From: Bacteroidales bacterium
GTDB taxonomy: Bacteria > Bacteroidota > Bacteroidia > Bacteroidales > UBA10428
DNA: 64,000 nucleotides
Reading direction: 5' to 3'
NCBI GenBank assembly: GCA_041737295.1
Contig: JBGSSA010000220.1
Location: 32,170-96,169, forward strand
Numbering within the stretch: the stretch's first letter is position 1; each line of letters opens with the position of its first letter. Of the stretch, positions 16,793 through 38,386 are shown one piece after another. Position numbers and translations under genes: made by a program. The notes under the pieces were generated by a model. The model was not told where the DNA came from. It was given only the letters and a program-made list of their open reading frames with translations, and did not search any database.

Positions 16793-16823
16793 ATAAAAAA
16801 GGCCATGTACAAAGTACACAGCC
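16793..16823 (-). terminator. Candidate intrinsic terminator after tandem paralog A
   Basis: Minus-strand RNA GGCUGUGUAC-UUU-GUACAUGGCC forms a 10-bp stem including two G-U pairs (16801-16823), followed by UUUUUUAU (16800-16793). It lies 22 nt after the stop at 16845. Confidence 0.5.
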
Positions 16824-16844
16824 TTTTTTATTAAACCGATCGTG

Positions 16845-18746: not shown

Positions 18747-18796
18747 AATAATTGGTTTTAGTGAATAATAAATAAGAGCTGATATTCATATAAATA

Positions 18797-20464
18797 TTAA
18801 TACCCTGGAGCTTGCTCACAAAGCGGATTAGCGGCAATTTCGCGATTAGGAACCGGCCAGCAGGCTGCCCTGGACGTATAGGTGCGTCCGGTTAGCCTGC
18901 ACTCCTCTTCGGCTATGTCCCACCGAACCATATCAAACCACCGTACCTGTTCACCGATGAATTCTTTTCGTTTTTCGGCTCTCAAATAGGTTCTGAAATC
19001 CTGGGGACTGCCTGAAGAATAATCGTAGGGTGATACTTCATCCTCGTAATATCCGTATGCGCGGCGGGTAACCTTATTCAACAATTGTATCGCCTTGTTT
19101 ATATCACCACCGCCTTCTATAAGGGCTTCGGCATATAAAAAGTAAACTTCAGCCACCCTGAGAACTACCTGATTTTCATCGCCCACATCGGTTGCCATGC
19201 CCTGTGCGTTGTTGGCATCCCTGAGATGGTTAATGTATTTTTTTGGTGAATTTTCTGTTTTGTTACTGTATTTGTAGGGAGCCATTTTGTTTGGCAGTCC
19301 GTCTTTGTAAAGCATCACGGAATCCCTGCAAACAATTGTTTTACCATGGAAAATGATAGTATCGGCATAGTTTGGGGAATTAACTTCCGCATCATAAAAA
19401 TGAAATCGGGATTCCACTTTCCTGATATCATATTTTTTGAAATCAAAGAAAAGCGTGTCCCTGACGCTTACATTACCGCGACCCATATCCGGACCTCCGC
19501 TGTAAATCTGAAAGTGAGATCCTGTACCCCCGCCCTGCCATGGGTTGGTAGTCACCAGATCCCCAAACTGAACTTCAAACAAGGATTCACAGGAGTTTTC
19601 AAATTCACCACCGTGGAAATTATCTCCATAATAGGCCAGTAATCCTTTGTAGTTCATACTTGCAGCACCAACATCACAATAGTTTTGTGTGAATTCTTCA
19701 AATTGTGTGATCGCTTCCGCATATTTCTTTTCAAAAACAAGCGTTTTTCCAAGCATTGCCAGGGCCGAAGGTTTAGTGGGCCTTCCCAGCTCTGTATCAG
19801 GTAAATCGATCGGATCAGGAAGCAGGGATTTTGCCCTGGCAAAATCACTTTCAATGAGAGCATACACTTCAGAGGGTTTTGACCGGGCCTTCTTAATTGC
19901 ATCCCTGGTGTCAACAACCTCGGTGTGGACTACCACGCCCCACTGATCATCTCCATCAAAAGGACGTCCCCATACGTGCAGCAAATAAAAATAAGACAGT
20001 CCCCGCATAAAATAAGCACTCCCCAGAATTCTGTCCTTTTCATCTGCCGGCATATCATCAATGGTGCCCGCATTTGTTTCTATAATGGAAATAATACGGT
20101 TGGAAGAACTTATGGTGCTGTAAAAGGCCGAGTATAACCATCCGATAAACGGATTCACCGGTGACGGGTTGAGGTTCCACATTTCAAAATGATAGGGTCC
20201 CTCATTTACGGGTTCCTTAAACTCATACTCGCCGGCGCAATGGGATAAAAACAGGGGCCAGAAGTAGTTGTAACTTCCCGCATAATTATTAAACATGCCG
20301 ATGTCCAGTTTCCTTACACCTTCCGGATTGTTAATGTCATCCGTTGTTTGCATGTTCAATTGTTCAACCTGAAGAAAATCCTCGCAGCTTACACACAGGA
20401 CGAAGGCTGTTACTGCAGCGATCTTACATAATTTGGAATATATCGTTCTCATGTTTTGATTCAT
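18797..20464 (-). CDS. SusD/RagB family nutrient-binding outer-membrane lipoprotein
   Basis: Lipoprotein signal ...AFVLCVSCEDF. It lies immediately downstream of SusC. The size (555 aa), the C-terminal ...RWFDMVRW... and the ending ...NPLCEQAPGY are typical of the SusD family. Confidence 0.9.
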   Translation of the reverse strand: MNQNMRTIYSKLCKIAAVTAFVLCVSCEDFLQVEQLNMQTTDDINNPEGVRKLDIGMFNNYAGSYNYFWPLFLSHCAGEYEFKEPVNEGPYHFEMWNLNPSPVNPFIGWLYSAFYSTISSSNRIISIIETNAGTIDDMPADEKDRILGSAYFMRGLSYFYLLHVWGRPFDGDDQWGVVVHTEVVDTRDAIKKARSKPSEVYALIESDFARAKSLLPDPIDLPDTELGRPTKPSALAMLGKTLVFEKKYAEAITQFEEFTQNYCDVGAASMNYKGLLAYYGDNFHGGEFENSCESLFEVQFGDLVTTNPWQGGGTGSHFQIYSGGPDMGRGNVSVRDTLFFDFKKYDIRKVESRFHFYDAEVNSPNYADTIIFHGKTIVCRDSVMLYKDGLPNKMAPYKYSNKTENSPKKYINHLRDANNAQGMATDVGDENQVVLRVAEVYFLYAEALIEGGGDINKAIQLLNKVTRRAYGYYEDEVSPYDYSSGSPQDFRTYLRAEKRKEFIGEQVRWFDMVRWDIAEEECRLTGRTYTSRAACWPVPNREIAANPLCEQAPGY

Positions 20465-20478
20465 TTTTATATGTAATG

Positions 20479-23400: not shown

Positions 23401-23613
23401 CACCGTACCATTCAGTGTTCCCTTCTCCAAAATGTTTACTCCGGGAAGCGGCTGATCGTCGGTGGCCGATTTGACCACACCCTTGATGAGCAATTCCTGG
23501 GATGCCGCGGTATTTGCCTTTGCGGGTCCGTCGGCATGTACACTCATACTGGCTGGGAATAATAGATTGAGACTAAACAGAATTAACAGAACTGATCGTA
23601 ATAATCTTTTCAT
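20479..23613 (-). CDS. SusC-type TonB-dependent outer-membrane transporter
   Basis: Signal peptide, a carboxypeptidase-regulatory-like domain (IKGVVKSATDDQPLPGVNILEKGTLNGTVTDVNGRYSL), a plug (VVVGYGTTRKSDLTSAV; ILKDASSAAIYGARGANGVILVTTRRGK) and the C-terminal beta-barrel ending ...YMIGAQVTF. Confidence 0.9.
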   Translation of the reverse strand: MKRLLRSVLLILFSLNLLFPASMSVHADGPAKANTAASQELLIKGVVKSATDDQPLPGVNILEKGTLNGTVTDVNGRYSLTVSGGDAILVFSFIGFLTEEVGVAGRSFIDMTLVEKIEELDEVVVVGYGTTRKSDLTSAVATVDVKEMNKLSVTSLDQAIQGRASGVFVTQKSGKPGENASIYVRGPGSVNGTDPLWVVDGVPISGQYDQSDIESIEILKDASSAAIYGARGANGVILVTTRRGKEGKPLINFSTYQGITSPMGLPDLINSYDYAKYKDESFINGGFKNSLVYHKIAQNPDTLLPVSTDWMKELFHNGSLQNYTLDFSGGNKVSRVYSSIAYLKQEGTYYKTSYERVTLNFNTDNEISKWLSVGNSLNLSYTKSDPKAMSDETMLRVNPFMQVMDETLTHSYTHYGQLTGEYGFQNVNPVGIEDVESRIERTYRVVGTLYMEIKPFKGLTWRTSFGGNFSFEDRSLYLSRYDFLYITRDKDRLEHNLKLRDSYVGNSVLTYNFKIGMHSITAMAGFEMIDEEPGNDYNMAGEDIENGKITFTNTDPTLRTLEGNRGDMVRWISEFGRVSYNFSDKYLFTFNIRADGTSKFARGNKIGVFPSASAAWRLTKEPFMSGLAQYADLKLHVGYGVVGNASFENNYPYLATLRTQQIYYVLGNNYDISSLRLGMNPNVFANEELQWESVYTTNAGFNLLLFNNRLEINADYYIKNTKDMLIPVDLPNSAGLGNDASALINLGSVSNKGLDLQARFRGSKGDFTYSIGGNLSFNRNKVESLNADKTITAGELNQFYTAPGLPMSSYQGYIVDGIWQATSEDTAAIVQRLIKAKKIKNRAQYNSTKNTAPGDLIYRDLNGDSIINKSDLALLGDPWPKFVYGVNLSAEYKGFDMTIFIQGVKGSEIFNLSKRVYENTYGDYSFTNKISGRWTPDNPSTTMPRLAYGDPNKNLTTSSSYFVEDGSYMRLKNVVIGYTLPQELMKKIGINRLRIYLSGQNLLTFTHYSGMDPEIGGGKNTERVLDNGIYPQSKTYMIGAQVTF

Positions 23614-23657
23614 AGAATTAGGGTTAATAATTTATAGATCCGATTTCTTTACTCTTT

Positions 23658-23665
23658 CAAAACTA
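23658..23665 (-). promoter_or_regulatory. Candidate Bacteroidota -7 promoter box for the susC-susD operon
   Basis: The minus strand reads TAGTTTTG, matching the TAnnTTTG consensus, about 45 nt upstream of the susC ATG at 23613. I found no clear -33 TTTG. Confidence 0.3.
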
Positions 23666-23783
23666 ATATTTAGCATCAGGAGTGGTTGTAATTAATGTTT
23701 CAGATATAGGGTTCATATGTTCCATGAATATAATCTATTGATTATTAGAAGTATAAAATGAATAACGAATGATATTTTGGTGT

Positions 23784-26039
23784 TTATTCCTTTACAGGTT
23801 GGCTGCCCATGTAGAAAATCAGGCTTCCTCCGTCATAAATTTCCTTATGGGTTATGTAACGCCTTTTCAGTAATTTGCCGTTTAACTCGACTTTTTGTAC
23901 AAAATGATTTTCTCCGGATAAATCCATAGCAACAACTTCAAATGGTATCTTTCCGGTTTGCAAAACTGCCCTGCCGATGACCGGTGTTCCCAGATCATAA
24001 TTGCCCGAAGCAGGGTTCACGGGATAAAAACCCAACGCGCTGAAAACGTACCACGCAGACATTTGTCCGCAATCCTCATTGCCACAAAGTCCATCAGGAG
24101 TGTCCTTATATAGTGTTGTCATTATATTTCTTAACCAATACTGCGATTTCCAGGCCTGATGAGTATAATTAAAAAGGTACGCCACCTGGTGACTTGGCTC
24201 ATTGCCATGAGCATATTCACCGATGAGCCCTGTAACATCAAGAGGTTTAGGATCACCGGTTGATGTTTTTTGGGAGAAAAGCTCATCGAGTTTTTTGCAA
24301 AATGCTTCCGGGCTTCCATACAAGGAGATGAGACCAGGCATGTCGTGGGGTACAAAGAAAGAATACTGCCATGAATTGCCCTCAATAAAATCAGAAGGTC
24401 CATAGGACGAAAAGGCCGGATCGAAAGGGCGACGGGGTTTGCCATCCGATGACCTTCCGTTCATGAGATTATACTGCGGGTCAAACAAATTTTTATAAGA
24501 TTGCGACCTCCTGATGAAGTAATGATAGTCTTCTTCTTTTCCCAATTCATTAGCTATCTGAGCAATACACCAATCATCAAAGGCATATTCAAGGGTTTTT
24601 GAAACGGATTTGTTATCCTTGTCAAAAGGAATATAGTTGTATTGCTTAAGATATTCTATCCCAAAATCATTCTGCATCGCACTTTTTTTCATCGCTGGAT
24701 AAAGTTGTTCCATATCGATGCCTGATAAACCTTTTAAATAAGCATCCGTAATAACGGGAATGGCATGGTAGCCTATCATGCAATTTGTTTCGCTTTCCCA
24801 TAAAGGCCATACCGGAAGCAATCCCGATTGTTCGTATTGATTCAGCATAGACTGGATCATATCGGGCACACGCTGTGGATGCATAATTGTATTAAGCGGA
24901 TTGGCTGCGCGGAATGTATCCCACAGGGAAAAAACAGTATAATTGGTATGTCCGTCAGCATGGTGAATTTTTTTGTCAATTCCCCTGTACCGGCCGTCCA
25001 CATCTGAAAAGGTATATGGAGCGATCATTGAATGATAAAGGGCCGTATAAAAAATTGTTCTTACTGATTCAGGCGCGTCCTCAATGATTATCTTTTCCAG
25101 CTCATTTTTCCAGGTATTTTTTGCTGCAGAAACCGTTTGATCAAATTCCCAGCCTTGGATCTCTTCCGAGAGATTTTTCAGGGCACCTTCAACGTCAACT
25201 GCGGATATTCCCACCTTAACCATAACCTGCTCACCTTCATGCGTGGAATATTTCACGTATGCCTTTAAATTCTGACCGGCTGCCTGCAAGTCTTTCTCCT
25301 GAAAAACATCATCCTTTACAATTCCCCTGGCAGAAAATGGTTTTGAAAAGGCTGCAGCAAAGAATATTACCTGGTCTGTAAAATCTTTCTCATTGCCTTC
25401 GCCCCAACCTCTTGACCGCCTGTATCCAGTGATCAGGCTGTCATTAACAAAGGTCAGTCCGGATTCTGTTACAGAATCCGTATCATACCCATGAAACAGA
25501 TCCAGGATAATATTTGCTTCTTCTGTTTCAGGAAAGGTGTAGCGATGAAATCCCCCATGTATTGTAGATGTAAGTTCTGCCTTTATATTATAGTCCTTTA
25601 AAAATACTGAATAGTAACCCGCACTTGCCACTTCATCGGCATGGCTGAACCTTGACCGGTAACCCTCATCCGGATTTTCACGTGAACCCGGATTCATCTG
25701 CAGTTTACCTGTTGTTGGCATGATCAGCACATCCAGCAGGTCCCCCCGACCTGTGCCCGACAGATGGGTATGGCTGAAGCCCATGATTGAACTGTCACTG
25801 TAATGGTAACCTGAACACCAGTCCCAACCTTTGGTATAGGTATCCGGACTAAGCTGTACCATGCCAAAGGGCAGTGTTGCGCCCGGAAATGTATGGCCAT
25901 GCCCGGCGGTACCGATTATTGGATTTACATAATCATATGGACGCTTCCTTTCACTTATCTTCTGTTTTGACTGACCGCAACCGAAAAAAAACACAAATAC
26001 GATCAGAAACAAGCCTGGTAATTTATTACTGGTAATCAT
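23784..26039 (-). CDS. GH92 alpha-mannosidase, lipoprotein
   Basis: The internal ATG at 26039 gives MITSNKLPGLFLIVFVFFFGCGQ (lipobox). GH92 blocks: VNPIIGTAGHGHTFPGATLPFGMVQLSPDT, GFSHTHLSGTG, NEDCGQMSAWYVFSALGFYPV. Confidence 0.85.
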   Translation of the reverse strand: MITSNKLPGLFLIVFVFFFGCGQSKQKISERKRPYDYVNPIIGTAGHGHTFPGATLPFGMVQLSPDTYTKGWDWCSGYHYSDSSIMGFSHTHLSGTGRGDLLDVLIMPTTGKLQMNPGSRENPDEGYRSRFSHADEVASAGYYSVFLKDYNIKAELTSTIHGGFHRYTFPETEEANIILDLFHGYDTDSVTESGLTFVNDSLITGYRRSRGWGEGNEKDFTDQVIFFAAAFSKPFSARGIVKDDVFQEKDLQAAGQNLKAYVKYSTHEGEQVMVKVGISAVDVEGALKNLSEEIQGWEFDQTVSAAKNTWKNELEKIIIEDAPESVRTIFYTALYHSMIAPYTFSDVDGRYRGIDKKIHHADGHTNYTVFSLWDTFRAANPLNTIMHPQRVPDMIQSMLNQYEQSGLLPVWPLWESETNCMIGYHAIPVITDAYLKGLSGIDMEQLYPAMKKSAMQNDFGIEYLKQYNYIPFDKDNKSVSKTLEYAFDDWCIAQIANELGKEEDYHYFIRRSQSYKNLFDPQYNLMNGRSSDGKPRRPFDPAFSSYGPSDFIEGNSWQYSFFVPHDMPGLISLYGSPEAFCKKLDELFSQKTSTGDPKPLDVTGLIGEYAHGNEPSHQVAYLFNYTHQAWKSQYWLRNIMTTLYKDTPDGLCGNEDCGQMSAWYVFSALGFYPVNPASGNYDLGTPVIGRAVLQTGKIPFEVVAMDLSGENHFVQKVELNGKLLKRRYITHKEIYDGGSLIFYMGSQPVKE

Positions 26040-26139
26040 GGCTATTGGAATATGATGTTTAGCCAATAAATATAAAGGGTTTAAAAGAAGCGAAAGAGGC
26101 TGAAAATGAAGTTGTATCATTCCCGCCCGCTTTTTGAAT

Positions 26140-26147
26140 CAAACTTA
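26140..26147 (-). promoter_or_regulatory. Candidate -7 promoter box for the GH92 gene
   Basis: The minus strand reads TAAGTTTG (TAnnTTTG), about 100 nt upstream of the ATG at 26039, in the divergent region shared with the HTCS gene. Confidence 0.25.
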
Positions 26148-26474
26148 AACTATTGACTGTAAACAGGCATGTCTATATCAGATGTATCATTCTAACCTGC
26201 AAAATAGTTCAAATGGATGCCATCATGATTTTATTTGGTAATAATTTTGATTTTTTAAAATTGAAAGTAAATAGTTAAAGCATGAAGGTGATTAAGCGTG
26301 TTTTCAAAAAGGGGATTACTCATCATTATATATTATTGGAAATATCTTTGGCCCTTATATTAATTGTGCTGCTTCTGTTGCTGATATTTCTTTAAAGTTT
26401 TCGCAAGCTTTGGATGCTTTATTACAGCAAGAATGTAAATTGCACGTAAATTAGTGAACTTGTCATTTCAAAAA

Positions 26475-29400
26475 ATGGTATCTCTCAGGATGCAATTTTC
26501 CAGAATAGCCGGGTTTATCTGTGCCGGACTTATCGGTGCCGCCTCAGCTTATGGCTCTTCCGATAAACCCGGGGATATATTTGCTTTCAAACATCTTACC
26601 ATTGAAAACGGATTATCCTCCAACATTACACATAAGATCATTGAGGATGCATATGGATTTATATGGATAGCCACACAAAATGGTTTAAACCGTTTCGACG
26701 GATCAAATGTAATTCCCTATTTTTATGAGCCTTCCGATACCGGAAGTATTCCCAGCAACGACATATCATCCCTGGCGGTGGATCGCAAAGGAAATCTTTG
26801 GATTGGCACAAAGAGCGGATTGTGTCGTTTCAATTATGCAACGGAAAAATTTGAAAAGCATATTCAGTATGGACCCGGTGAAAGAAATTACATTACAAGT
26901 CTGCATGTTGACAGGAAAGGTCTGTTATGGGTAGGTACCGAACACGGCCTGTTCACTTTCAACCAGGAAGAAAATTCATTTCAGAAAAGGCTTTCTGAAG
27001 GTGAATTAAACCTGTTTGCACCCATGTCCTTTGCTGAAGATGAAAACGGAACCCTATTCGTTGGTACCTGGGAAAAGGGTTTATACCAGATAGCTGAAAA
27101 CCGTGATTTTTTTAGCCGGGAAGTGATTGATATGAGAGATGCCAGTAAAGTATCCGGTTGCAATACGCTTGAAGATATTTTTGTAGACAGAAACAATACG
27201 TTGCTGCTGGGTTCAAAAGAGGGATTGATCAAGGCGACAGTGAATTCAGGACTGGGAAAAAACAAATACAGTTTTTCCTGGCTTTACAGGTATGGTGATG
27301 AGTCCCAGGCTCTGTCCGACCGAAATATTCATGCCCTGTGTGAAGACAATTCGGGAAGATTATGGATTGGCACTGAATATGGTCTGAATATATATGATCC
27401 GAAAACACAGAAAATCACACAGGAGTTTAATGACCCGAATAATCCAAAATCACTGAGTAACAACCTGATTAAATGTATATACAGGGATCGTAACGGGAAT
27501 ATGTGGGTGGGTACTTACCAGGGAGGCGTAAACATTTATTTCCCGAACGAGGAGCGATTCCGAAACTACTTTCCGGATATAAACAATACCACAAATCAAA
27601 GAATGCGATATGTGAAGTGCATTCTTGAAGATAATAAAGGCAATTTATGGATCGGTACTGACCTGGGGTTGTTGCAATTCTCCGATAACGGAAAATTATT
27701 GCGGACTTTCGTTAATAAACCCTCCGATAAATCCTCACTCAATATTGGTGGAGTAAGTGCCCTCTACCAGGATAAAAAAGGAAGGATCTGGGTAGGCACC
27801 TGGGGAGGCGGATTGCATGAGCTTAACCCTGTAACCGGTAAATTCACGCGCCTTCCATGGTTGGACGAGGTGCATAATAATCCGCAATCGCAGGGAGACA
27901 TCAATGTCCGTTCTATTGCTGAAGACAGCAAGGGTAATCTTTGGATAGGACATGTGAGGGGCTTCCTGGATAAGTATTCGCCTGAGACCAAAACGTTCGA
28001 GCATTTCAAGGTAAATATTAAAAATCTCAGTATTAACGCCGTAATTATAGTTGTCAAAATAGATAAGGAAGACAATGTTTGGATTGGCACACAGGGTGGC
28101 GGATTGATAAAATTGGATGCACGCACCAAAAAAATGCAGTATTACGGTATCAATTCCCATGAAAGTGAAAACCATATGCTTTCCATTAACAGCAAGGATG
28201 TGTATTCCCTGCACTTTTCCGGAAATGATACCCTGTGGATTGGTACGGGCAACGGGCTGAACATGTTCAACCTGCGAAACAAAACCACAAAGTATTATAC
28301 TTCGGAAAATGGTTTGTCCAGTAATTTGGTTTACAGCATTTTACAAGACAATTCCGAAAATCTTTGGCTTAGCTCCCTGAATGGCATAAGTAAATTCAAT
28401 CTGAAACGGGAAACATTCATCAATTACAATAACCGGGATGGCGTTCGTATAAACTCCGAAGCGGGCTATAGAAGTTCTACAGGTTGGTTATTTTTTGGAG
28501 GAGTTAATGGCATTAACGCCATTAATCCCGTCTCTATGACTGAGAACAATATTATTCCGCCAATTGCATTGACAGATTTGAAAATTTTCAATAAATCCGT
28601 GCCCATAGGCAGGAAATCTATCCTGAAAAAGCACATAAACCTCACCGATGAAATAATTTTAAATTATAATCAGAATGTACTATCCCTCGAATTTGTCGCT
28701 CTGAATTTTATAAATACTGAAAAAAATCAATATGCATGCAAACTGGAGGGATTTGACATAGAGTGGGTACAATTGGGTTCACATCATGAGGCTCGTTATA
28801 CCAATCTGAATCCGGGTGATTATATACTTCATGTGATCGCGTCAAACAACGATGGATTATGGAACGAGAATGGAAGACAGCTGAAGATTAAAATTCTCCC
28901 TCCCTGGTGGAAAACTTTGTTATTCAGGTTAATGCTTGTAATAAGTGTGTTTTCATTGATCCTTTCCTGGATACTGTTAAGAACATACAGCCTTAAACAA
29001 CAGCACCTCAAATTGCAGAAACTGGTTATAGAGCGCACAGAGGAGATTGAAGAACAAAAAATCAAGCTCCAGGAACAAGCTGAAGATTTAACAAAGACCA
29101 ATCATCTGCTTATTGAAAAACAGAATGAAGTCCAGTCTCAGAAAGAGGCCATAGCCAGACAAAATGAAAAACTTGAAGTAAAAAATAAATTACTTGAAGA
29201 TCAGAATATTAAAATTATTGAACAACGGAACAGGGAGCAGGAAATGGCGAACAAGTTGCATGAAGCTGATCAGATGAAACTTCGTTTTTTCACTAATTTA
29301 TCCCATGAATTTCGGACTCCTCTTACTCTGATACTTGGCCCGCTTGAGAAGCTGCTTTCCGAATTTTCATCACATAACGGTTTTACCGAGCTGGCGCATG

Positions 29401-30872
29401 TCATTCAGCGAAATACACTCCGCTTGATGAATCTCATAAACCAGTTTCTCGATCTTTCCAAATTAGATGCTGGAGTAATAAAACTGAATATTTCAAAAGG
29501 GGATCTGTTCAATTATGTTCATGGCATTGTAAATGCTTACCAATTTGTTGCAAAGCAGAAGAATATTGACTACAAATTTATTTCTCCTGTGGAAGAATAC
29601 TTTTGCTATTTCGACGCGGATAAAATTGAAAAGATCCTTTATAATCTGCTCTCCAATGCATTTAAATTTACGCCGGCCGGAGGAAAAATAACTGTAAGTG
29701 TTGAATTATTGAAAAAAGAGACCGTTTCGGTTGAAAATCCTGATACGCTTAATATTATTGTATCCGATACCGGTAAAGGAATTCCTCCCGAATTACTCAG
29801 CAGGATCTTTGAGCGGTTTTACCAGGTGGACCTTAAAAGCAATAATAAAAATCCCGGTACGGGAATTGGTCTGGCACTTACAGACGATCTTGTACAAATC
29901 TACCGTGGTCAGATTAAGGTTGAAAGTAAACCGGGTGCCGGTTCAACATTTATTGTAACTCTTCCCATTGATGAGTCATCTTTCAGGGAAGAAGAATTCT
30001 CATCGGATATTCCTGATGTTGACCAGTTAAAACACCAGGTCATCGTTTTGGAAGATACTTATTATGATGGTCTCCCTGGTGAAGATAATATGCCTGAAAG
30101 CAAAAAAACAGCAATCCTTATTGTTGATGACAACAAGGATATTCGAAAATATCTGAAGAACAATCTACGTGAAACCTATCAGGTTATTGAAGCCAATGAT
30201 GGAGTTGATGGTCTTGAGAAAGCCCTAAAATACCTTCCGGCGCTTGTTATTTGCGATGTGATGATGCCTGAAATGGACGGTTACGAATTATGTGCAAAAC
30301 TGAAAACCGACATGCGAACCTGTCATATACCGGTAATTATCCTCACTGCCAAAGCTACACCCGGAGACCAGCTTGAAAGTATCGAGACCGGGGCTGATGT
30401 ATATATTTCCAAGCCGTTTGATTTTCTGTTGCTTGGAACACATATTAACCAGCTGATCGTCACCCGGGAACAGCTCAAGGTACTTTACCGGCGGGAGTTG
30501 ACTCTTCGACCCAGTGACATTATTGTGGAATCCACCGATGAGAAACTCATAAACCGGATCATTAAGGTAATGAGCGACAATATCTCAAATCCTGATTTCG
30601 GCGTAGAGGATCTGGGTAGGGAAGTAGGCATGAGCAGAACACATCTTTACAGAAAAATCAAGCAGCTTACCAACCTGACGGCTATTGAATTTGTACGTAA
30701 TATGCGACTCCAGAGGGCCGCTCAACTGTTCAAGCAAAATAAACTGTATGTTGCTGAAGTAGCCTATATGAGCGGATTCAAGGAATTGTCGTACTTCAGA
30801 AAAATATTTAAGGAATTTTATGGCATCTCTCCGCAGGAATACACAAGCAAGGAAAATCAGCACAATTCCTGA
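26475..30872 (+). CDS. Hybrid two-component system regulator (HTCS): periplasmic beta-propeller/Y_Y_Y sensor, histidine kinase, receiver and AraC-type HTH
   Basis: Many repeated propeller blocks (..G.LW[IV]GT..GL..). A TM segment (LLFRLMLVISVFSLILSWILL). H-box FFTNLSHEFRTPLTLILGP. ATPase block GTGIGLALT. Receiver blocks ILIVDDNKDIRKYL and CDVMMPEMDGYEL. HTH block VAYMSGFKELSYFRKIFKEFYGISPQEY. The start is ambiguous: GTG 26454, ATG 26475 or ATG 26490. Confidence 0.9.
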   Translation: MVSLRMQFSRIAGFICAGLIGAASAYGSSDKPGDIFAFKHLTIENGLSSNITHKIIEDAYGFIWIATQNGLNRFDGSNVIPYFYEPSDTGSIPSNDISSLAVDRKGNLWIGTKSGLCRFNYATEKFEKHIQYGPGERNYITSLHVDRKGLLWVGTEHGLFTFNQEENSFQKRLSEGELNLFAPMSFAEDENGTLFVGTWEKGLYQIAENRDFFSREVIDMRDASKVSGCNTLEDIFVDRNNTLLLGSKEGLIKATVNSGLGKNKYSFSWLYRYGDESQALSDRNIHALCEDNSGRLWIGTEYGLNIYDPKTQKITQEFNDPNNPKSLSNNLIKCIYRDRNGNMWVGTYQGGVNIYFPNEERFRNYFPDINNTTNQRMRYVKCILEDNKGNLWIGTDLGLLQFSDNGKLLRTFVNKPSDKSSLNIGGVSALYQDKKGRIWVGTWGGGLHELNPVTGKFTRLPWLDEVHNNPQSQGDINVRSIAEDSKGNLWIGHVRGFLDKYSPETKTFEHFKVNIKNLSINAVIIVVKIDKEDNVWIGTQGGGLIKLDARTKKMQYYGINSHESENHMLSINSKDVYSLHFSGNDTLWIGTGNGLNMFNLRNKTTKYYTSENGLSSNLVYSILQDNSENLWLSSLNGISKFNLKRETFINYNNRDGVRINSEAGYRSSTGWLFFGGVNGINAINPVSMTENNIIPPIALTDLKIFNKSVPIGRKSILKKHINLTDEIILNYNQNVLSLEFVALNFINTEKNQYACKLEGFDIEWVQLGSHHEARYTNLNPGDYILHVIASNNDGLWNENGRQLKIKILPPWWKTLLFRLMLVISVFSLILSWILLRTYSLKQQHLKLQKLVIERTEEIEEQKIKLQEQAEDLTKTNHLLIEKQNEVQSQKEAIARQNEKLEVKNKLLEDQNIKIIEQRNREQEMANKLHEADQMKLRFFTNLSHEFRTPLTLILGPLEKLLSEFSSHNGFTELAHVIQRNTLRLMNLINQFLDLSKLDAGVIKLNISKGDLFNYVHGIVNAYQFVAKQKNIDYKFISPVEEYFCYFDADKIEKILYNLLSNAFKFTPAGGKITVSVELLKKETVSVENPDTLNIIVSDTGKGIPPELLSRIFERFYQVDLKSNNKNPGTGIGLALTDDLVQIYRGQIKVESKPGAGSTFIVTLPIDESSFREEEFSSDIPDVDQLKHQVIVLEDTYYDGLPGEDNMPESKKTAILIVDDNKDIRKYLKNNLRETYQVIEANDGVDGLEKALKYLPALVICDVMMPEMDGYELCAKLKTDMRTCHIPVIILTAKATPGDQLESIETGADVYISKPFDFLLLGTHINQLIVTREQLKVLYRRELTLRPSDIIVESTDEKLINRIIKVMSDNISNPDFGVEDLGREVGMSRTHLYRKIKQLTNLTAIEFVRNMRLQRAAQLFKQNKLYVAEVAYMSGFKELSYFRKIFKEFYGISPQEYTSKENQHNS

Positions 30873-31044
30873 AGTATAGCAGAGTACCTTCCCGGGTTTT
30901 TCTTCTTTTTGTGAATTGTTTCAGTTTGCAGGTTTGAATGATACAAGATGCAAACGATCGGTTCCTGCCTCAATATATTCAATTAAATTGGCTATGAATT
31001 CAGGATTAAGAAGGTATTAATTATAGCAGGTATCTCATTATAGT

Positions 31045-31120
31045 AGTATTAGTTTTAGTTAGTATTAGTTTTAGTTAGTAGTTAGTGGTTAGTATTGGTT
31101 GATTAGTCCAAATTAGTGAG
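31045..31120 (+). repeat. TAG/TTAG-rich tandem repeat: two exact 16-nt units followed by degenerate units
   Basis: agtattagttttagtt occurs at 31045-31060 and again exactly at 31061-31076. It is followed by agtagttagtggtt, agtattggttgatt, agtccaaatt and agtgag. TAG stops occur in all three forward frames. Confidence 0.85.
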
Positions 31121-31150
31121 GTTGCCGGAATTATTCCGGCAACTTTTTTT
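31121..31150 (+). terminator. Intrinsic terminator-like hairpin plus T7 tract, ending 12 nt before the ATG at 31163
   Basis: gttgccggaa (31121-31130) / tta / ttccggcaac (31134-31143) forms a perfect 10-bp GC-rich stem, followed by ttttttt (31144-31150). Confidence 0.7.
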
Positions 31151-31162
31151 AAAAATTACAAC

Positions 31163-34100
31163 ATGAAAACACGAATCATTCCAGTGCTTTTATTAGTCAG
31201 TTCCTTTTCCGGTTTCGCGCAGGACCCATGCATTTCCCGTACCTGGAAAAATTCCTATTTAACTTCCTGGCTGCTGAATGACGGAGGAGTACAGGCAAAT
31301 CACATCCAACATACAATGGACAACATTTTTGTCAGGTCCGACGGAATGGTGGCAACAGTCACAGGCTGGGATGAAGGTGGCTCAAATGTCATTGCATTTT
31401 CCCCCGACGGAAAAATTAAAAGCATTCCGGAAGGATCCGGAACAGGCGGATACGGAAGAATGTCCATGACCGGTGTGGTTTTAGACAAAAACTACATATA
31501 CCAGCTGCTTTCACAGAATGGCTGCGACGGTGCCGTTACAGCAAAAAACAGGAACAACCTCCCGCAATATCCCAAATGTGGCGACCAGTATACCTGGAAA
31601 ACTGTCAGAAGATATAATATCTCAAATGGTTTGTCCGCGCCGTTCAGCAATGGGTATGGCTACAAAGGTGACATGTTGATCGTGCATTCGGGTATCGGTG
31701 ACCTGAACGGTATTGCAATTATCGGAGACAATCTGATCGTATCGGATGAAAGAGGAGATACTATCCGGGTCTACAATAAAAATACGTTATCCTCTGTTCC
31801 TGAATATAAATATCATATTAATGGTGGTGTTGGACAATTGTCTCCTGATAACCACGGGTGCCTGTGGATGCTGCAACCTGAAACCAAAAAAATAATACGG
31901 TTCAACCGGATAAACGGAGATCTTCAATCCCAGGAAATTACATTCCCTGATTCTGTCATACCCTCGGCCTTTTTCGTTGATACATTGCGCAATCGTATAC
32001 TTGTGGCAGACAATGGCATTACCCAGAACATCCGCATCTATGGGAACATATATACAAACCCGCATCCGGAAGCCACTTTCGGAAATACTTTTGGTATCTT
32101 TTCAGACACCGGGGGGAAATATGGACCGTTAAAATTTTTCGATCTGAAAGGCGTTGGCGTTGACTCAGCAGGAAATATATATGTGGCAAACTCCGTTGTT
32201 GGCGGAGGATCGGTACTGCAAGCCTACAAGCCTGATGGAAGCATGTTATGGGACAGAATGGGACTTGCATTTACGGCCACTGCCAGTGCTGATCCAAAAA
32301 ATGTAAGCGAGGTCTATACTTTTGATAAAAAAGTTAAAATGGACTATTCCAAAACTGCACCAGGCACCGAATGGTCATTTGACGCCTATACGCTCAACCG
32401 TTTTAAATATCCGGATGATCCCCGCATACATGGCGGCTTCTTTACCTCCTCCTGGATAAAGTATATTGATGGCCGGAAATTTCTGTTCGCAACAGACATG
32501 TATGCAAGCCAGCTGGCTGGTTTTCGGTTTTCCCCCGGCAGCGAAGTGGCAATTCCCTGCCTGCTGATGAATGTGGGCGGTTGGGATATCAATTCCAATT
32601 ATCCTGTTAATCTGGGTGCGGAAAAGGATTTTATCTGGATGGATAAAAATGGCGATGGATCCATACAATCCGATGAATTCACTTTCAAAGAAGGTTTTGA
32701 TAATCCATTCTCTATGTCGGTATGGGTTGACTCAGCAGGCAATATCTGGAAAGGTGTGCGTGAGAAAGGAGTGCGTTTTATTCCACTAACCGGCGTGAAC
32801 GATGCCGGCGTCCCGTTATACGATTTTGCCGGTTCCAGGCTAATTGACATTTCTAATGGTGCATCAGGTACAAACGGAGTTAAGCGGCTGGTCTATGACG
32901 CTGAAACCGATGAATTATTCATTGCCGGGTTCAGTGATGAAAAACCCGATGTGAAGGCTAACGGGCAATCCACTGATACATGGTGGTGTATGGGATCAAC
33001 AATTTGCATGTATAACAATATTCTTGATACGTTGAAAAAGAATCCCGATACAGATTTCAAAAACATAAAACCTGCCTGGCGGATGTTTGTCCCGTTTGCT
33101 GCCGACGGCGAAACCGGCAGTGAAAAGGATTCAAAATCATTTGTTACAAACGGAGATTATGTTTTTGTTGCCCTGGCCAGATATGGACTGATCAATGTGT
33201 ATAAAAGAAGTAACGGGGAGTATCTGGGACAGATCAAACCGGGTGATGCCGTAAACAGGGAAAGCGGATGGACCGACATTAATTATTCAATCAATGTTTA
33301 CCAGCGCGGAAATGAAACCCTCATTTTTAATGAGGAGAATGCATTCGGAAAAGTTATTCTATACAGGGTCAGCAGCTTTGAAACCAATGATCTTCTTTAT
33401 CCTGATCTCGTTCCGGCTGACCTGAAACTGATAAACCGGCAGGGTGACGTGATAACAGAGCTCCAACCGGATGAGCCCGTAAGATTTGTTGTAACCGTAA
33501 AAAACCAGGGACCCGGATTATCACCCGGCGGAAGCAATTATACCGGAGGAAAAAGCATCCTTGTCGACTTTACAGTGAAAAATACAATCACTAAGGAAAT
33601 AAAAACGTTTGTTTCGGATACATGCACCTCATCCCTTCAATCGGGTGATTCAATAACATTTACCAGTTTCAGCACAAACAAACCATTTGAATGGATGGCT
33701 GAAAAAGGCAGCTTTGAGATAGCGGCCCGTATAAATCCCTTATCCGTTATTTATGAATGTCATAAAGTCAATAATGTTTTGTCGCTTATGATTGACAGTT
33801 ATGATACAGTGGTGATTTCAAAGCATCCGGTATCCGCAACAATCAATACAGGAGAAAATGTATCCTTCTCGGTGGAGGCATTCGGAAAAGATCCGCTGCA
33901 TTTTCAATGGCTGATAAATAACCAGGTGCAGGAAGGGATAAATCAGCCAGTGCTGTTCCTCACAGATGTTTCATACAACCTGAACCAGGCCGCAATCAAA
34001 GTGGTGGTTAGCAACGACCTGGGAAGTGATACAAGCAACATGGCAGTACTCACAGTGCTGAATCCTTATGGTGAATCGAAGCCTGGATTTTTATTACAGC

Positions 34101-34861
34101 AAAAATGGAACGGCATCACAGGAACCCGTGTCAGCGATCTGAAAAACAATACCAATTATCCAAATAACCCGGATGCAATTACCTATATCAATAAATATGA
34201 AGTGGCCACCAATATCGGTGATCAGTATGGGGTCCGCGTCTCGGGATGGCTTTTGCCCCCGGTGACGGGAAATTATGTTTTTTACTTTGCCAGTGATGAT
34301 AACGGCGAACTCTGGCTTAGTACAGATTCACTAAAGGAAAATCTGGGGGAATATCCAATTGCCTGGGTATCAGATTGGACCGATCCAAGGGAATACACGA
34401 AATTTCCGGATGATCAGTGCTCCGATACGATTTTTCTGGAAGGCGGAAGGGCCTATTACACAGCAGCATTTTTTAAAGAACAGGAAGGCGGGGATAATAT
34501 GGCGGTTTGCTGGAGGTTGCCGGATGGAACAATGGAGAATCCGATTCCTTCATCAAGACTGGCCTTTTATACAGATGCGCCGGTGGTTACTTCCAATCCC
34601 GAAACAGATAACTCATCTGAAATGATGATCTTTCCAGTACCGGCTGAATCGTGCTTTTATATCCGGTTGCAAGAAGCCAATGGACCCGTGATATTGTCAA
34701 TTACCGATATTTCTGGGCATGTTGTGAAGCTTGAGACCATAGACAGTTCGGGAATTGCCGACGATCCTGTGGATGTATCTTACCTGCGATCAGGCTTGTA
34801 TATCGTAACAGTTATTAATCGCGGAAAAATGGTTCATGCAAAACTTCTGATCAGCAAATAA
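31163..34861 (+). CDS. Very large secreted protein: beta-propeller-like N-terminal region, CARDB-like, Ig-like and PA14 domains, T9SS C-terminal domain
   Basis: Signal MKTRIIPVLLLVSSFSGFAQ. NHL-like block GNIYVANSVVGGGSVLQAY. CARDB-like block PDEPVRFVVTVKNQGPG. Ig-like block ...PLHFQWLINNQ.... PA14 block GDQYGVRVSGWLLPPVTGNYVFYFASDDNGELWLS. CTD: MMIFPVPAESCFYI...GLYIVTV. Confidence 0.7.
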   Translation: MKTRIIPVLLLVSSFSGFAQDPCISRTWKNSYLTSWLLNDGGVQANHIQHTMDNIFVRSDGMVATVTGWDEGGSNVIAFSPDGKIKSIPEGSGTGGYGRMSMTGVVLDKNYIYQLLSQNGCDGAVTAKNRNNLPQYPKCGDQYTWKTVRRYNISNGLSAPFSNGYGYKGDMLIVHSGIGDLNGIAIIGDNLIVSDERGDTIRVYNKNTLSSVPEYKYHINGGVGQLSPDNHGCLWMLQPETKKIIRFNRINGDLQSQEITFPDSVIPSAFFVDTLRNRILVADNGITQNIRIYGNIYTNPHPEATFGNTFGIFSDTGGKYGPLKFFDLKGVGVDSAGNIYVANSVVGGGSVLQAYKPDGSMLWDRMGLAFTATASADPKNVSEVYTFDKKVKMDYSKTAPGTEWSFDAYTLNRFKYPDDPRIHGGFFTSSWIKYIDGRKFLFATDMYASQLAGFRFSPGSEVAIPCLLMNVGGWDINSNYPVNLGAEKDFIWMDKNGDGSIQSDEFTFKEGFDNPFSMSVWVDSAGNIWKGVREKGVRFIPLTGVNDAGVPLYDFAGSRLIDISNGASGTNGVKRLVYDAETDELFIAGFSDEKPDVKANGQSTDTWWCMGSTICMYNNILDTLKKNPDTDFKNIKPAWRMFVPFAADGETGSEKDSKSFVTNGDYVFVALARYGLINVYKRSNGEYLGQIKPGDAVNRESGWTDINYSINVYQRGNETLIFNEENAFGKVILYRVSSFETNDLLYPDLVPADLKLINRQGDVITELQPDEPVRFVVTVKNQGPGLSPGGSNYTGGKSILVDFTVKNTITKEIKTFVSDTCTSSLQSGDSITFTSFSTNKPFEWMAEKGSFEIAARINPLSVIYECHKVNNVLSLMIDSYDTVVISKHPVSATINTGENVSFSVEAFGKDPLHFQWLINNQVQEGINQPVLFLTDVSYNLNQAAIKVVVSNDLGSDTSNMAVLTVLNPYGESKPGFLLQQKWNGITGTRVSDLKNNTNYPNNPDAITYINKYEVATNIGDQYGVRVSGWLLPPVTGNYVFYFASDDNGELWLSTDSLKENLGEYPIAWVSDWTDPREYTKFPDDQCSDTIFLEGGRAYYTAAFFKEQEGGDNMAVCWRLPDGTMENPIPSSRLAFYTDAPVVTSNPETDNSSEMMIFPVPAESCFYIRLQEANGPVILSITDISGHVVKLETIDSSGIADDPVDVSYLRSGLYIVTVINRGKMVHAKLLISK

Positions 34862-34885
34862 TCCTTGCCTTTAAATCAAAAAGCC

Positions 34886-37800
34886 ATGCGCAGCCTTTAC
34901 CTGTTCCTGCTTTTCCATACGTTTATCATCCTGCCGGCTTTGCCTCAGATGAGAGCACCTGAAGAATGGCTCAACTATGAATCCGTGCTTGGATTGAAAA
35001 ACGGACAACGCTTTTATGATTATGATGTATTATGTAAAGGATCCTCTGCATCAGTTAACGTATTCTGGCCCGGCGAGAAAGCTCATTTTACCTTTCACAT
35101 AACCAATAACACGGATGCCTCGATGATTACCGCCGGCAGGGTGGATATCATCCGGTATGGCTGTAAGGGACTTCCAAATGATATCTGGTTACCCGAAATA
35201 GTCAAAATGGCCGATGTGCAGTCAATACCAATTTCAATTAACCTGGCCCCGAAGGGAGAAACTGACATTGATCTGGAGCCTGCGTTGCCTGAAACTTTCG
35301 GGGGATATGCCGTTGTATTCGACCTTGGTCAACACGGACGCAGACTGGCAACCAGTGTGATCCGCACTTTTAAGCCCAATCCGCGCCCTATTCAATATCC
35401 CAAACAATCACTGGATGACCTGGGCGCTGATTTTTTAAGCCGTATCGGTGTGCAGGCCATACGCATGGGCGTTCCCTATATTCCAACCACCCACCGTGAT
35501 TATGTGCAGGAGATGGAAAAACTCGACAGGCAGCTGCGCGAATACAAAAGCAAGAATATTACGGTGTTGCTCATGTTTGGCGAGGGACCCGCACAAATTC
35601 CACTTGGAAATCCCCGTTCCTTCCTGGATGAAAACGGAATTTATCTTAAAACCAAGCAGGACTATGCCTGGCTTCCATCTTTGGATGCTGATTTTCAGAA
35701 ATTTGTAAAAAACATATGTGTTAAAAACGGTTGGCCACGTGGATGCGTTACAGGCGTCCATCTCTGGAACGAACCCTGGGAGGGCATTTCCATTTCAGGG
35801 TGGCAGGCGGATATGTTGCGATACCGTGAAATCTATACAACCATGGCAGGTGGGGTGCTTGAAGCACGGAAAACCGGGGTGGATGTGTTGATTGGGGGCT
35901 GCGACTCCAACTCCAATGCCTGGGACAAATTGTTCAGTGACGGCACGCAGAAATTCCTCCCCATATTTGATTTTCTATCGATTCATTACCAGGGAATGGA
36001 ATCCCCCTGTCTCTATCCTGGTTGGAATAACCGCAAAGACCATAAAGGCAGAGTGCTGATATGGGATACGGAAAGCTGGGTTGGGAATACGGATGACCGC
36101 ATCGGCACCGTGGTGGCAGTTAACCGTTCAGCAGGATATGACCGTTCAATGGGCATTTATGGAGGATATATGATCTCACGGCCGGATAACGGCAATGCCG
36201 TTCCCTCCGTCTGGTCTCCTGCAGCAGCGATGGGTGCAGTACAGCATATGATTGGTGAACGTGATTTCGGTGAATTGCTTTTCAAAAACGGTCTTCCGTG
36301 GATATTGCTGTTTAATGGCTCTGAAGGGAATGAAGATGACGGTTCGGTGGTTGTGTGCGGCGATATCGGTGAGGCCTTCGGAACCGCAAATGTATTATTC
36401 AGAGGTGTGCATGGAAGCACCGAACCTATGGTCCCGCATTCAGAACAGAAAATTCTGACCGGGGGTAAAATGACAATCAAGGCACATCCTGCGTTCCGGT
36501 TATTTGATTTTTACGGGAACCCTGTTCCTCCAAAAGGTAATATGATGGAGATTCCACTCACCTTTCAGGGTTATTATCTCCGAACTGACGGATCACTCGG
36601 ATCTTTTGAAATACTGAAGACAGCCCTTCAAAACGGTTTTGTTGAAGGATATGAACCCGTTGATATTGTTGCCAGGGATATGACAAGCCGGATTGGTCAG
36701 AATGCGGAGCTCGGAATACAACTTACGAACATTTTGAACCGCACCATTTCAGGAAGCCTGCAGGTGAGTCTGGGTCACCTTACCCTGGAAACACAGGCCA
36801 GTTTTTCACTGGGTGCCAATGAAACACGGATGATTCAGGTACCGGTCATGGCAGGAGAACCGTCACCTGACAATACCTATCGCCTTGAAGTGATCGTCGA
36901 TGCCGGAAAGGACGGAAAAGCATATCACCAGGAGAACATGCACGTAAATGTAATTTCAAAAGGCACCAAAAAAATAGATGGAAATCTGGAGGATTGGGAA
37001 AACAGTATTCCCCATACCGTAACAGCCGGATCGGCCAGCATTTCCGTGACCGAAGCTGCCTGGTATCCCTTCAAAAAATTCGACAAAGAAGCAGAAGGCC
37101 TTGCAACGGGTTTCCTGGCTTATGACGATGATTACTTTTATTTTGCGGCAAAAGTCGCAGACCCTACCCCTCATCCCGGCACCTTGCGTTTTGAAACCCG
37201 CAATGATGACGAGTTTTTTTATCCGGACACCAGCTATAAGCCCGATACCGAATTGTCGTTTAAAAAAACCAATGGCCGAAGGGATGCAGAAGAAAATGAT
37301 CCCCTGGCATTGCAAAATCCGGATGGACCTGGCAGGATCATGAATTACTGGGAACCAGATAAAAACAACATAGGGTTTGGCCTTGATCTGCATTTGCCCC
37401 CGGGAAAAACCACACAGGTGTCGTTTTTCCTGCCAAATATAGATACCTGGCAAACCGGGGTGGAGATCAGGGATGCGGAAACCATGTCGCTGCTTGCCTC
37501 CCATACCTTTGAAAAGCTATGGGAAGGATTATACCTGGTATATGCCATGTCAGGAAATGTCAGGGTTACCTTCAAAGGGAACTGGTGGTATAATGTAAAA
37601 CTGGCCGGCATTTTTATTGACAGCATCAGTAAAAGTTCAACAGATGCCAGTTCGGCAATCCTGATCAAAGAAGACTTCGGGACGAAAGGAAACTGGAAAG
37701 GAATTTATGGCAAAAGCGGATACTGGATCTTCGGGACCAACCCCTCACTCCCGGCCGGAATTACTATGCAGGCTACAGATATTGAAAAGCTGACGCCACT

Positions 37801-38386
37801 GGTATGGCCTGAAGGGGTTCGGCATTTTTCATACAGGAAAGATCCTGTATTGCCTGATAACAGCACCGGGATGGGATTTGCCACCGACAATGTTCAAATA
37901 GCCTTTAATGTAATTCCTATTGGAAAGGATGGATATGGGTCTCATCCTAAAGGAACCATGCCCCGCTATACAGGGTACAAATGCACTGACTACGAATATG
38001 CACTCAACCAGGTGGCTCCTGAATATGGAGGAGGCACTGAGATCTGGCGGTTACTGGTGCCGGGCATGCCGGAGAAACATTTTTATCCCCGTCAGCCTGC
38101 CTCACCCTTCGACGGTCCGGTAAAGCAAGGACAGTTGGCAGTCCTCCACATGGGGAACACCCGGATAACCGAATGTGCTATTCCCTGGAGTGAAATTCCG
38201 GATGTTAAAAAGGCACTCGATGAAGGTCGCACCATTAAGTTTTCATTTCGGGTGAACGATGACAACAACATGGGAAGTTGTATGGAGTTAGCCCGTGACC
38301 GCAGTGTATCGAAGAAAAATTCACGCGCTTTTCATGCATCCTGGAAAGAACACTGGGCAAATGAGGTGGAATTTGGATTTGAATAA
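34886..38386 (+). CDS. Large secreted protein, possible clan GH-A-like glycosidase with a C-terminal CBM9-like region
   Basis: The ATG at 34886 gives the signal MRSLYLFLLFHTFIILPALPQ; the ORF-track start is a TTG at 34865. GVHLWNEPWEGISISGW contains the NEP acid/base-type motif of clan GH-A. IDGNLEDWENSIPHTV ... DDDYFYFAAKVAD follows a CBM9-like pattern. The function is uncertain. Confidence 0.5.
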   Translation: MRSLYLFLLFHTFIILPALPQMRAPEEWLNYESVLGLKNGQRFYDYDVLCKGSSASVNVFWPGEKAHFTFHITNNTDASMITAGRVDIIRYGCKGLPNDIWLPEIVKMADVQSIPISINLAPKGETDIDLEPALPETFGGYAVVFDLGQHGRRLATSVIRTFKPNPRPIQYPKQSLDDLGADFLSRIGVQAIRMGVPYIPTTHRDYVQEMEKLDRQLREYKSKNITVLLMFGEGPAQIPLGNPRSFLDENGIYLKTKQDYAWLPSLDADFQKFVKNICVKNGWPRGCVTGVHLWNEPWEGISISGWQADMLRYREIYTTMAGGVLEARKTGVDVLIGGCDSNSNAWDKLFSDGTQKFLPIFDFLSIHYQGMESPCLYPGWNNRKDHKGRVLIWDTESWVGNTDDRIGTVVAVNRSAGYDRSMGIYGGYMISRPDNGNAVPSVWSPAAAMGAVQHMIGERDFGELLFKNGLPWILLFNGSEGNEDDGSVVVCGDIGEAFGTANVLFRGVHGSTEPMVPHSEQKILTGGKMTIKAHPAFRLFDFYGNPVPPKGNMMEIPLTFQGYYLRTDGSLGSFEILKTALQNGFVEGYEPVDIVARDMTSRIGQNAELGIQLTNILNRTISGSLQVSLGHLTLETQASFSLGANETRMIQVPVMAGEPSPDNTYRLEVIVDAGKDGKAYHQENMHVNVISKGTKKIDGNLEDWENSIPHTVTAGSASISVTEAAWYPFKKFDKEAEGLATGFLAYDDDYFYFAAKVADPTPHPGTLRFETRNDDEFFYPDTSYKPDTELSFKKTNGRRDAEENDPLALQNPDGPGRIMNYWEPDKNNIGFGLDLHLPPGKTTQVSFFLPNIDTWQTGVEIRDAETMSLLASHTFEKLWEGLYLVYAMSGNVRVTFKGNWWYNVKLAGIFIDSISKSSTDASSAILIKEDFGTKGNWKGIYGKSGYWIFGTNPSLPAGITMQATDIEKLTPLVWPEGVRHFSYRKDPVLPDNSTGMGFATDNVQIAFNVIPIGKDGYGSHPKGTMPRYTGYKCTDYEYALNQVAPEYGGGTEIWRLLVPGMPEKHFYPRQPASPFDGPVKQGQLAVLHMGNTRITECAIPWSEIPDVKKALDEGRTIKFSFRVNDDNNMGSCMELARDRSVSKKNSRAFHASWKEHWANEVEFGFE

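Follow-up and report, generated by a model that had tools for sequence, protein, structure and literature searches.

What does a strong transcription terminator do when it stands 12 nt before the start codon of a large gene, at the end of a run of stop codons? The question arises in a window of 64,000 nucleotides from a Bacteroidales bacterium (assembly of 5.42 Mb in 258 contigs, 43% G+C), at a 290-nt gap between two genes on the forward strand. Upstream lies an HTCS gene (26454-30872, +; Pfam Reg_prop, Y_Y_Y, HisKA, HATPase_c, Response_reg and HTH_18), one of only two full-length HTCS genes found when the genome's ORFs were searched by blastp. Downstream lies the gene for a 1232-aa protein with PA14 and T9SS C-terminal (Por_Secre_tail) domains (31163-34861, +), followed after 3 nt by an ORF of 1173 aa (34865-38386, +). 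ORF ends and Pfam domains bear out the original prediction, made from the letters of the window, as to this gap and the genes that bound it. The ATG at 31163 is the true start of the PA14 gene: the signal peptide MKTRIIPVLLLVSSFSGFAQ begins there, and orthologues align from residue 1. Across a divergent gap on the other side of the HTCS gene, a GH92-SusC-SusD operon runs in the opposite direction; the PUL is made up of two arms, 9094-26120 (-) and 31163-38386 (+), that point away from the HTCS gene.

Here we describe the 290-nt gap as a compound regulatory region, taking in turn its terminator, its repeat tract, and its candidate operator and promoter. We hold with moderate confidence that a terminator in the leader both insulates the PA14 operon against read-through from the HTCS gene and throttles the operon's own expression; the other readings are weighed where the evidence on them is given.

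The terminator before the PA14 gene

The hairpin occupies 31120-31143 (+), with a perfect 10-bp core that wobble extensions bring to 13 pairs. Its arms are GTTGCCGGAA (31121-31130) and TTCCGGCAAC (31134-31143), with six G:C pairs in the core and an energy of -15 kcal/mol; a tract of seven T follows at 31144-31150 (+), then AAAAATTACAAC (12 A-rich nt) and the ATG. This is the build of an intrinsic (Rho-independent) terminator—a GC-rich stem-loop directly followed by a U-tract—and the sequence agrees base for base with the 10-bp hairpin (31121-31143) and T-run that had been predicted. A stem at least this stable together with a T-run of at least seven is found in only 26 of the 298 strict terminator candidates in the genome. 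An automated terminator scan missed the hairpin, probably since the palindrome runs on into a loop of fewer than 3 nt. No terminator is present between the HTCS stop codon and 31121.

As originally noted, the space from the T-run to the ATG is too short for anything promoter-like, and transcripts that encode the 1232-aa protein must therefore read through the terminator; that step of the earlier reasoning stands. Among the strict intergenic terminators of the genome, 19 of 202 lie no more than 40 nt upstream of an ATG on the same strand; one of these, at C239:107242, comes after a susD-like gene, with 11 nt between its end and the following ATG.

None of the 35 genomes of the genus has a close orthologue of either the PA14 gene or the HTCS gene, and an exact-pattern scan of metagenomes with the hairpin and start returned no match. 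The comparison that we can draw covers three distinct sequence versions from one species cluster: the window itself, and two kinds of metagenomic relative, L014 and the L013 type (the gap sequence is the same in L013, L016 and L017). Both show 89-90% protein identity and the same order of HTCS gene, gap and PA14 gene. The hairpin is 100% identical in L014 and 79% in L013, the T-run measures seven in L014 and five in the L013 type, and the terminator is kept 12-19 nt before the ATG in all three versions. Two of the 13 consensus pairs have changed on both sides (G:C to A:U and A:U to G:C) and two more show compatible one-sided changes; the structure is kept through compensatory change in these three distinct sequences. 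Judging from its kept position and the two compensatory pairs, the terminator is under selection.

At greater distance the arrangement is a different one. Among named organisms, the PA14 gene has its nearest relatives in Prolixibacteraceae MAGs, at 58-60% identity. Where orthologues share 55-60% identity, the gene is usually part of a SusC-SusD-CBM9-DUF362 operon whose gaps measure 18-46 nt; two of the orthologous loci that we examined have other upstream neighbours. Neither the repeat described below nor a terminator was found upstream of the 55-60%-identity orthologues. Conservation of the repeat upstream of orthologous genes, which the original prediction had named as a check, is seen within the species cluster only.

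The TAG-rich tract

Ahead of the hairpin lies a simple-repeat tract that is rich in TAG and free of C (31037-31107, +; 71 nt, 12 TAGs, stops in all frames). Within it the 16-mer AGTATTAGTTTTAGTT is duplicated exactly and in tandem at 31045-31076 (+), where the copies at 31045-31060 and 31061-31076 are identical base for base, as had been reported; TRF gives this repeat a period of 16, 2.6 copies, 96% matches and a score of 77, and detects periods of 6, 7, 10 and 16 in the tract. The degenerate AGT-initiated units that were said to come next are present, but they number five instead of four: AGTAGTT, AGTGGTT, AGTATTGGTTGATT, AGTCCAAATT and AGTGAGGTT. The stretch 31019-31162 holds 14 TAGs, divided 6/6/2 among the three frames in keeping with the predicted stops in every forward frame, and this number was reached by none of 20000 random or shuffled sequences. 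Every frame has a TAG from 31024 onwards. The spacers between TAGs are 0, 3, 3, 1, 3, 3, 1, 0, 1, 4, 11 and 7 nt; three UAGs, at 31076, 31083 and 31090, have 4-nt spacers.

All three versions have a tract rich in TAG, in which the C-free run measures about 47-71 nt, and this tract is the least conserved part of the gap: identity over the C-free tract is 59% in L014 (24 gap columns) and 54% in L013 (10 gap columns), with an indel of 23-24 nt relative to L014. L014 has a single copy of the 16-mer and two UAGs in register; the L013 type has a rearranged tract, TTTTTAGTTAGTAGTTTTTAGTTAGTAGTGG, with four UAGs at a 7-nt period. Since L014 has a single copy, the duplication of the 16-mer is, by this comparison, a recent slippage event, and on the same alignment the exact 16-nt repeat is dispensable.

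The genome is full of sequence of this kind. TRF finds 1319 tandem-repeat clusters, 695 of them with a period of 7 or 8, and there are 320 C-free runs of at least 45 nt. Repeat units elsewhere include TAGGGGCT, TAGTTGA, TAGCACAT, CTGCAAAA and GTTGATTT, and different units are often joined head to tail; examples of intergenic arrays lie at C42:14594-14684, C176:7566-7700 and C33:102434-102564. Arrays of TAGTTGA number about 30, and one TAGTTAG array occurs, at C71. The tract resembles the TAGTTNN heptamer arrays of this genome and has the marks of a short tandem intergenic array—units joined head to tail, a copy number that varies in relatives, and a genome rich in arrays—and is best seen as one more of the genome's simple repeats. 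C-free arrays showed no strong polarity bias relative to gene direction, as far as crude gene calls can tell. Many of the arrays have a REP-like multi-copy palindrome of about 30 nt beside them, GTACAGACAAGGCA(A/T)TGCCTTGTCTGTAC, or a second recurrent element, CCCCCGCTGGCGGGGGCAGGGGGTGGA, that looks REP-type; sites of these elements include C71:7690-7720 (-), C122:10100-10140 and C239:11000-11060.

The combination of a TAG-rich tract and a hairpin also occurs at C71, C89, C164, C93, C218 and C239:10788, in mixed contexts: 3' UTRs, a possible free-standing small RNA, and leaders. The genome-wide enrichment of TAG-rich sequence before terminators is weak, 2-5 fold on very small numbers. At C239:10745-10800 (-), outside the window, TTAGTTAGTAGTT and a terminator are followed by a perfect -7 box, TATTTTTG, right after the T-run, with an ATG about 20 nt further on; promoters can abut terminators in this genome.

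Candidate operator, promoter and leader

The original prediction offered the 16-nt direct repeats as a possible binding site of the AraC-type output domain of the adjacent HTCS. AraC-family proteins often bind direct repeats, and these adjoin the HTCS gene; we nevertheless regard the idea as extremely improbable. The copy number is not kept (single in L014, rearranged in the L013 type), the least conserved part of the gap is the tract itself, and nothing alike is found in the GH92-side promoter. Similar TAG tracts stand at unrelated loci that have no HTCS, and the genome-wide habit of simple repeats is enough to explain them. The repeats are neither kept in relatives nor common to the promoters of the regulon, as an operator would be, and they lie downstream of the likely promoter described below.

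A far better candidate lies at 30911-30945 (+). This 35-nt element, GTGAATTGTTTCAGTTTGCAGGTTTGAATGATACA, has its core 19-mer at 30927-30945, and a left copy at 26183-26213 (-), upstream of GH92-SusC-SusD, has the core TGCAGGTTAGAATGATACA at 26201-26183. The core TGCAGGTTTGAATGATACA, with W at position 9, has only two zero-mismatch copies in the 5.42-Mb genome, and these are the inverted pair that flanks the HTCS gene; the next best match has two mismatches. The element is the best-conserved non-coding part of the gap: the block 30912-30945 is 100% identical in L014 and 88% in L013, and flanking segments are 44-79% identical. Both copies are kept in L016, and the right copy is identical in L014. 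As sequence, then, 30911-30945 is both kept in relatives and common to the promoters of the regulon, and we infer that it is a candidate operator of the adjacent HTCS. The sensor's DNA site would probably lie about 100 bases upstream of the tract.

Two further occurrences of this sequence should be mentioned. GAATGATACA, the 3' half of the operator core, appears a third time at 26114-26123 (-), over the GH92 start codon (GGGAATGATACAAC), and does so in L016 as well. The 19-mer core also matches without mismatch at 1501-1519 of L030 (G008:C77), minus strand, in another species of the genus, where it lies at a susC/susD junction and is the reverse strand of the end of a susC-like gene, covering its last codons (..LNVSF and stop) and 3' flank; the SusC encoded there shares only 29% identity with the one in the window, and the chance expectation of a 19-mer match is about 0.002. 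Since it matches a susC 3' end in this species, the 19-mer could be a relic of rearrangement instead of an operator.

The -7 box of Bacteroidota promoters has the consensus TAnnTTTG (PMC7366714). On the GH92 side a perfect box, TAAGTTTG (26140-26147, -), lies between the left operator copy, which it follows by 35 nt, and the GH92 ATG (26120), which it precedes by about 20 nt. The original prediction had found no TAnnTTTG box upstream of the PA14 gene, and the gap indeed holds no perfect match; it does hold a weak -7-like box with one mismatch, TAAATTGG (30984-30991, +), 38 nt past the operator. An alignment of the two promoter regions extends over about 100 nt and pairs TAAGTTTG with TAAATTGG; the L013 type has TAATTTCA, with two mismatches to the -7 consensus, at the same 38-nt distance from the operator. 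A -33 TTTG at the right distance was not found. This homology suggests a weak, activator-dependent promoter that would fire near 30998. Each arm of the PUL lies behind a copy of the same promoter region, and orthologous loci form one operon, SusC-SusD-CBM9-DUF362-PA14; the PUL promoter and operator may have been duplicated in inverted orientation when an ancestral operon was split around the HTCS gene.

The promoter homology near 30984-30998 would place the tract and the terminator inside an untranslated leader of the PA14 operon, predicted to run for about 165 nt (30998-31162, +). In B. thetaiotaomicron, 13.5% of mRNAs have a 5' UTR of more than 100 nt (PMC7366714). We found no conserved small ORF in the leader—the only mini-ORF with an ATG (30993) has ACG in L014—and, with TAG in all frames from 31024, the leader lacks what a leader-peptide attenuator requires. 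An Rfam scan of the region gave no match near threshold, and none of ten look-alike loci scored at or near it; identity over the 5' part of the leader is 36-76%, and the tract is free of C, which does not fit a riboswitch or another structured cis-acting RNA. No conserved antiterminator helix complementary to either arm of the terminator was found by eye or by folding. Sequestration of the start region by the tract was also considered, and was rejected as inconsistent among the three versions.

Readings of the region and known systems compared

The reading that we favour joins these elements in one sequence of events. The operator at 30911-30945 would serve the weak promoter marked by the -7-like box at 30984-30991, and the promoter would give rise to the leader, about 165 nt long. 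With TAG stops in every frame the leader would be kept free of ribosomes, and without C it could form no G-C pairs in this stretch and would be weakly structured. RNA polymerase coming either from the HTCS gene or from the leader promoter would then meet the strong intrinsic terminator 12 nt before the ATG, and both the PA14/T9SS protein and the 1173-aa protein would come from read-through transcripts alone. The terminator would act as an insulator against HTCS read-through and as an attenuator that sets the PA14 operon below the GH92-SusCD operon, which has the same operator. The original prediction had suggested an attenuator or a separate short RNA; that suggestion is reasonable, because the terminator is selected and the promoter-like region upstream of it is homologous to the GH92-side promoter. 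Points against a leader terminator are that, without regulation, transcribing from a promoter into a terminator of the same leader would be wasteful, that the -7-like box is imperfect, and that no regulator, conserved antiterminator helix or leader ORF was found.

A possible reading, though in our judgement a rather unlikely one, is that the HTCS transcript simply ends here, in a 278-nt 3' UTR closed by its ordinary terminator and containing a simple repeat by chance; the PA14 operon would be expressed only by constitutive leakage, and the 35-nt block would be a rearrangement scar or have some other role. The absence of anything terminator-like between the HTCS stop codon and the hairpin speaks for this, as does the end of the genome's only other HTCS operon, which also consists of TTAGTTAGTAGTA and a terminator. 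At C164 and C93, plain 3' UTRs likewise have a TAG-rich tract ahead of the terminator, the 19-mer is the reverse strand of a susC 3' end in G008, and the locus has been rearranged, given that the 55-60%-identity orthologues usually have the PA14 gene inside a SusCD operon. What weighs against an ordinary HTCS terminator is mostly the 35-nt block: it is the best-conserved non-coding part of the gap, its paired copy lies 35 nt before the perfect -7 box of a PUL operon, and the whole promoter region aligns between both sides. It would also be unusual for a large two-gene operon to be made by leakage past a strong terminator. The end of the other HTCS operon lies at C164:8446-8530 (-), after an HTCS gene at 9119-13333 and a 152-aa ORF; the two HTCS proteins of the genome are 32% identical, and for any wider pattern at HTCS loci this is the one further locus in the genome to compare.

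Two readings give the leader RNA a part of its own, and we consider each of them improbable. In one, the product is the short terminated RNA, about 150 nt long, HTCS-induced and derived from the leader, which would act in trans as an sRNA; its single-stranded, UAG-rich body of G, U and A would base-pair with other mRNAs at 5' regions rich in A and C, or would associate with an RRM-1 (RbpB-like) protein or titrate it. The FopS sRNAs known from B. thetaiotaomicron share this build, with a single-stranded 5' stretch and a terminator, and they bind the RRM-1 protein RbpB and repress susC mRNAs (PMC11697453); RbpB binds a motif of G, U and A, GUAGGAUA (bioRxiv 10.1101/2021.04.27.441718), and sRNAs derived from 5' UTRs occur in the same organism (PMC7366714). 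The tract matches the published FopS 5' consensus at 22 of 26 positions (p ~0.01 against shuffles), and the genome has three RRM_1 genes, at C58:21938, C24:42164 and C232:6959. A similar tract and terminator at C89 stands alone between genes behind a TATATTTG box, and is the sole, weak Rfam match to FopS.

Against the trans-acting sRNA, the window region has no match to RF04319 even at E<=10, and C89 scores 17.5 bits where the gathering score of the family is 56 bits. The sequence of the tract is poorly conserved, a duplex search over 3940 translation start regions gave results no better than shuffled tracts, and the similarity may reflect a common low-complexity composition. The relation of the tract to FopS is one of resemblance, not of membership. 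The C89 locus (21590-21760, -) is in its own right a candidate free-standing small RNA between genes of the other strand, with -7 boxes TATATTTG and AAAGTTTG, then UUUUCAUAAUUAGUAGUUUUAGUUAAUAA and further sequence, and a terminator.

The other of these two readings, which we hold to be just as doubtful, makes the UAG-repeat leader a platform for one of the three small RRM-1 (RbpB-like) proteins of this genome. The protein would open or lock the terminator by the logic of HutP and TRAP, or would itself be titrated by the leader RNA by the logic of CsrB, with UAG in place of GGA. If true, this would add a post-initiation checkpoint to an HTCS-activated PUL promoter.

Still less probable, in our view, is a switch of the kind that HutP and TRAP provide in Bacillus, in which a protein would read the UAG repeats and control the terminator; this is one form that the conditional antitermination or attenuation of the original prediction could take. 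HutP sites have 4-nt spacers, and TRAP targets about 11 (G/U)AG triplets with 2-3-nt spacers. UAG triplets do adjoin the leader terminator, up to its very foot; the three UAGs from 31076 to 31090 have the spacing of HutP sites, and the L013 type has four at a 7-nt period. However, the spacing is irregular overall (0-11 nt), L014 has only two UAGs in register, any heptamer repeat that bears TAG yields such a pattern, and there is no competing antiterminator structure. The genome has no match to HutP (PF09021) at E<=1, where a B. subtilis positive control scored above the cut-off, and no match to TRAP (PF02081); neither the HutP gene needed for antitermination nor the gene and spacing needed for TRAP attenuation is in place. 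As improbable as an operator role of the 16-nt repeats is the notion that the inverted 35-nt copies are recombination sites or the ends of a mobile or invertible 4.7-kb HTCS segment, with tract and terminator as junction debris: the inverted repeats flank the HTCS gene exactly and the locus is rearranged relative to distant orthologues, but the orientation is the same in all three assemblies, no recombinase gene adjoins, and the terminator is kept with compensatory changes.

Control of PULs in Bacteroidota is usually described as control of initiation (by HTCS, ECF-sigma and SusR-type regulators), together with a few small RNAs. A strong terminator in an HTCS-dependent leader would, if true, be a second checkpoint for a PUL, during elongation. 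As a test case the locus is compact, with one sensor gene and two copies of a candidate operator, one of which would drive its operon directly and the other through a terminator, and it supplies a concrete candidate operator for an HTCS; to our knowledge, few HTCS operators have been defined. It would also show simple repeats, so abundant in this genome, entering transcribed leaders. Should the terminator prove simply constitutive, what remains is an ordinary insulator beside a simple repeat.

Several known systems resemble parts of this region. Intra-operon hairpins or terminators after susD are familiar from Bacteroides PUL operons, and, as in the example at C239:107242, the terminator here adjoins the next start codon too closely to admit a promoter; unlike those, it comes 248 nt after the upstream stop codon and downstream of a promoter-like region. 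For the tract, the closest parallel is in the stop-bearing heptamer direct repeats, e.g. TAACTGA, published for Beggiatoaceae, cyanobacteria and some Bacteroidetes (MacGregor 2015, PMC4679880). These too are short, forward-oriented intergenic repeats ahead of a start codon with stops in three frames, and their copy number shifts between close relatives by steps of a repeat unit; in contrast, the unit here is degenerate (TAGTTNN, with a secondary duplication of 16 nt), and the tract ends at a terminator instead of a start codon.

HutP binds two XAG-rich regions within terminator RNA (PMC2425495). The hut and trp systems of Bacillus subtilis, controlled by HutP and TRAP, are alike in that (U/G)AG triplets adjoin a terminator just upstream of the first gene; they differ in that this genome, from another phylum, has no HutP or TRAP gene, and in that the spacing is irregular and the number of repeats is not kept. 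FopS and GibS sRNAs (RF04319; PMC11697453) likewise have a G/U/A-rich single-stranded stretch with UAGUAUUAG, then a terminator, in a PUL context, and an RRM-1 protein partner is available in this genome; unlike them, the RNA predicted here has no covariance-model match and about twice their length, forms part of a leader and contains a poorly conserved tract.

The last comparison can be made within the genome itself. At C156:7640-7777 (+) lies a classical his attenuator, with the leader peptide MKFNGTHHHHHHP closed by a stop codon and a terminator ending 20 nt before the hisG ATG; at C105:38600-38780 (+), a promoter, TATCTTTG, leads into some 115 nt of leader in which small ORFs occur, and a strong terminator then stands 29 nt ahead of gltB (GATase_2), which makes this leader a candidate attenuator. 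The PA14 leader is unlike the his leader-peptide attenuator in having no leader peptide, with TAG in all frames, and no conserved antiterminator helix. Like the terminator-type leader attenuators of hisG and gltB, it would combine a promoter, a leader and a strong terminator that ends 12-29 nt before the start codon.
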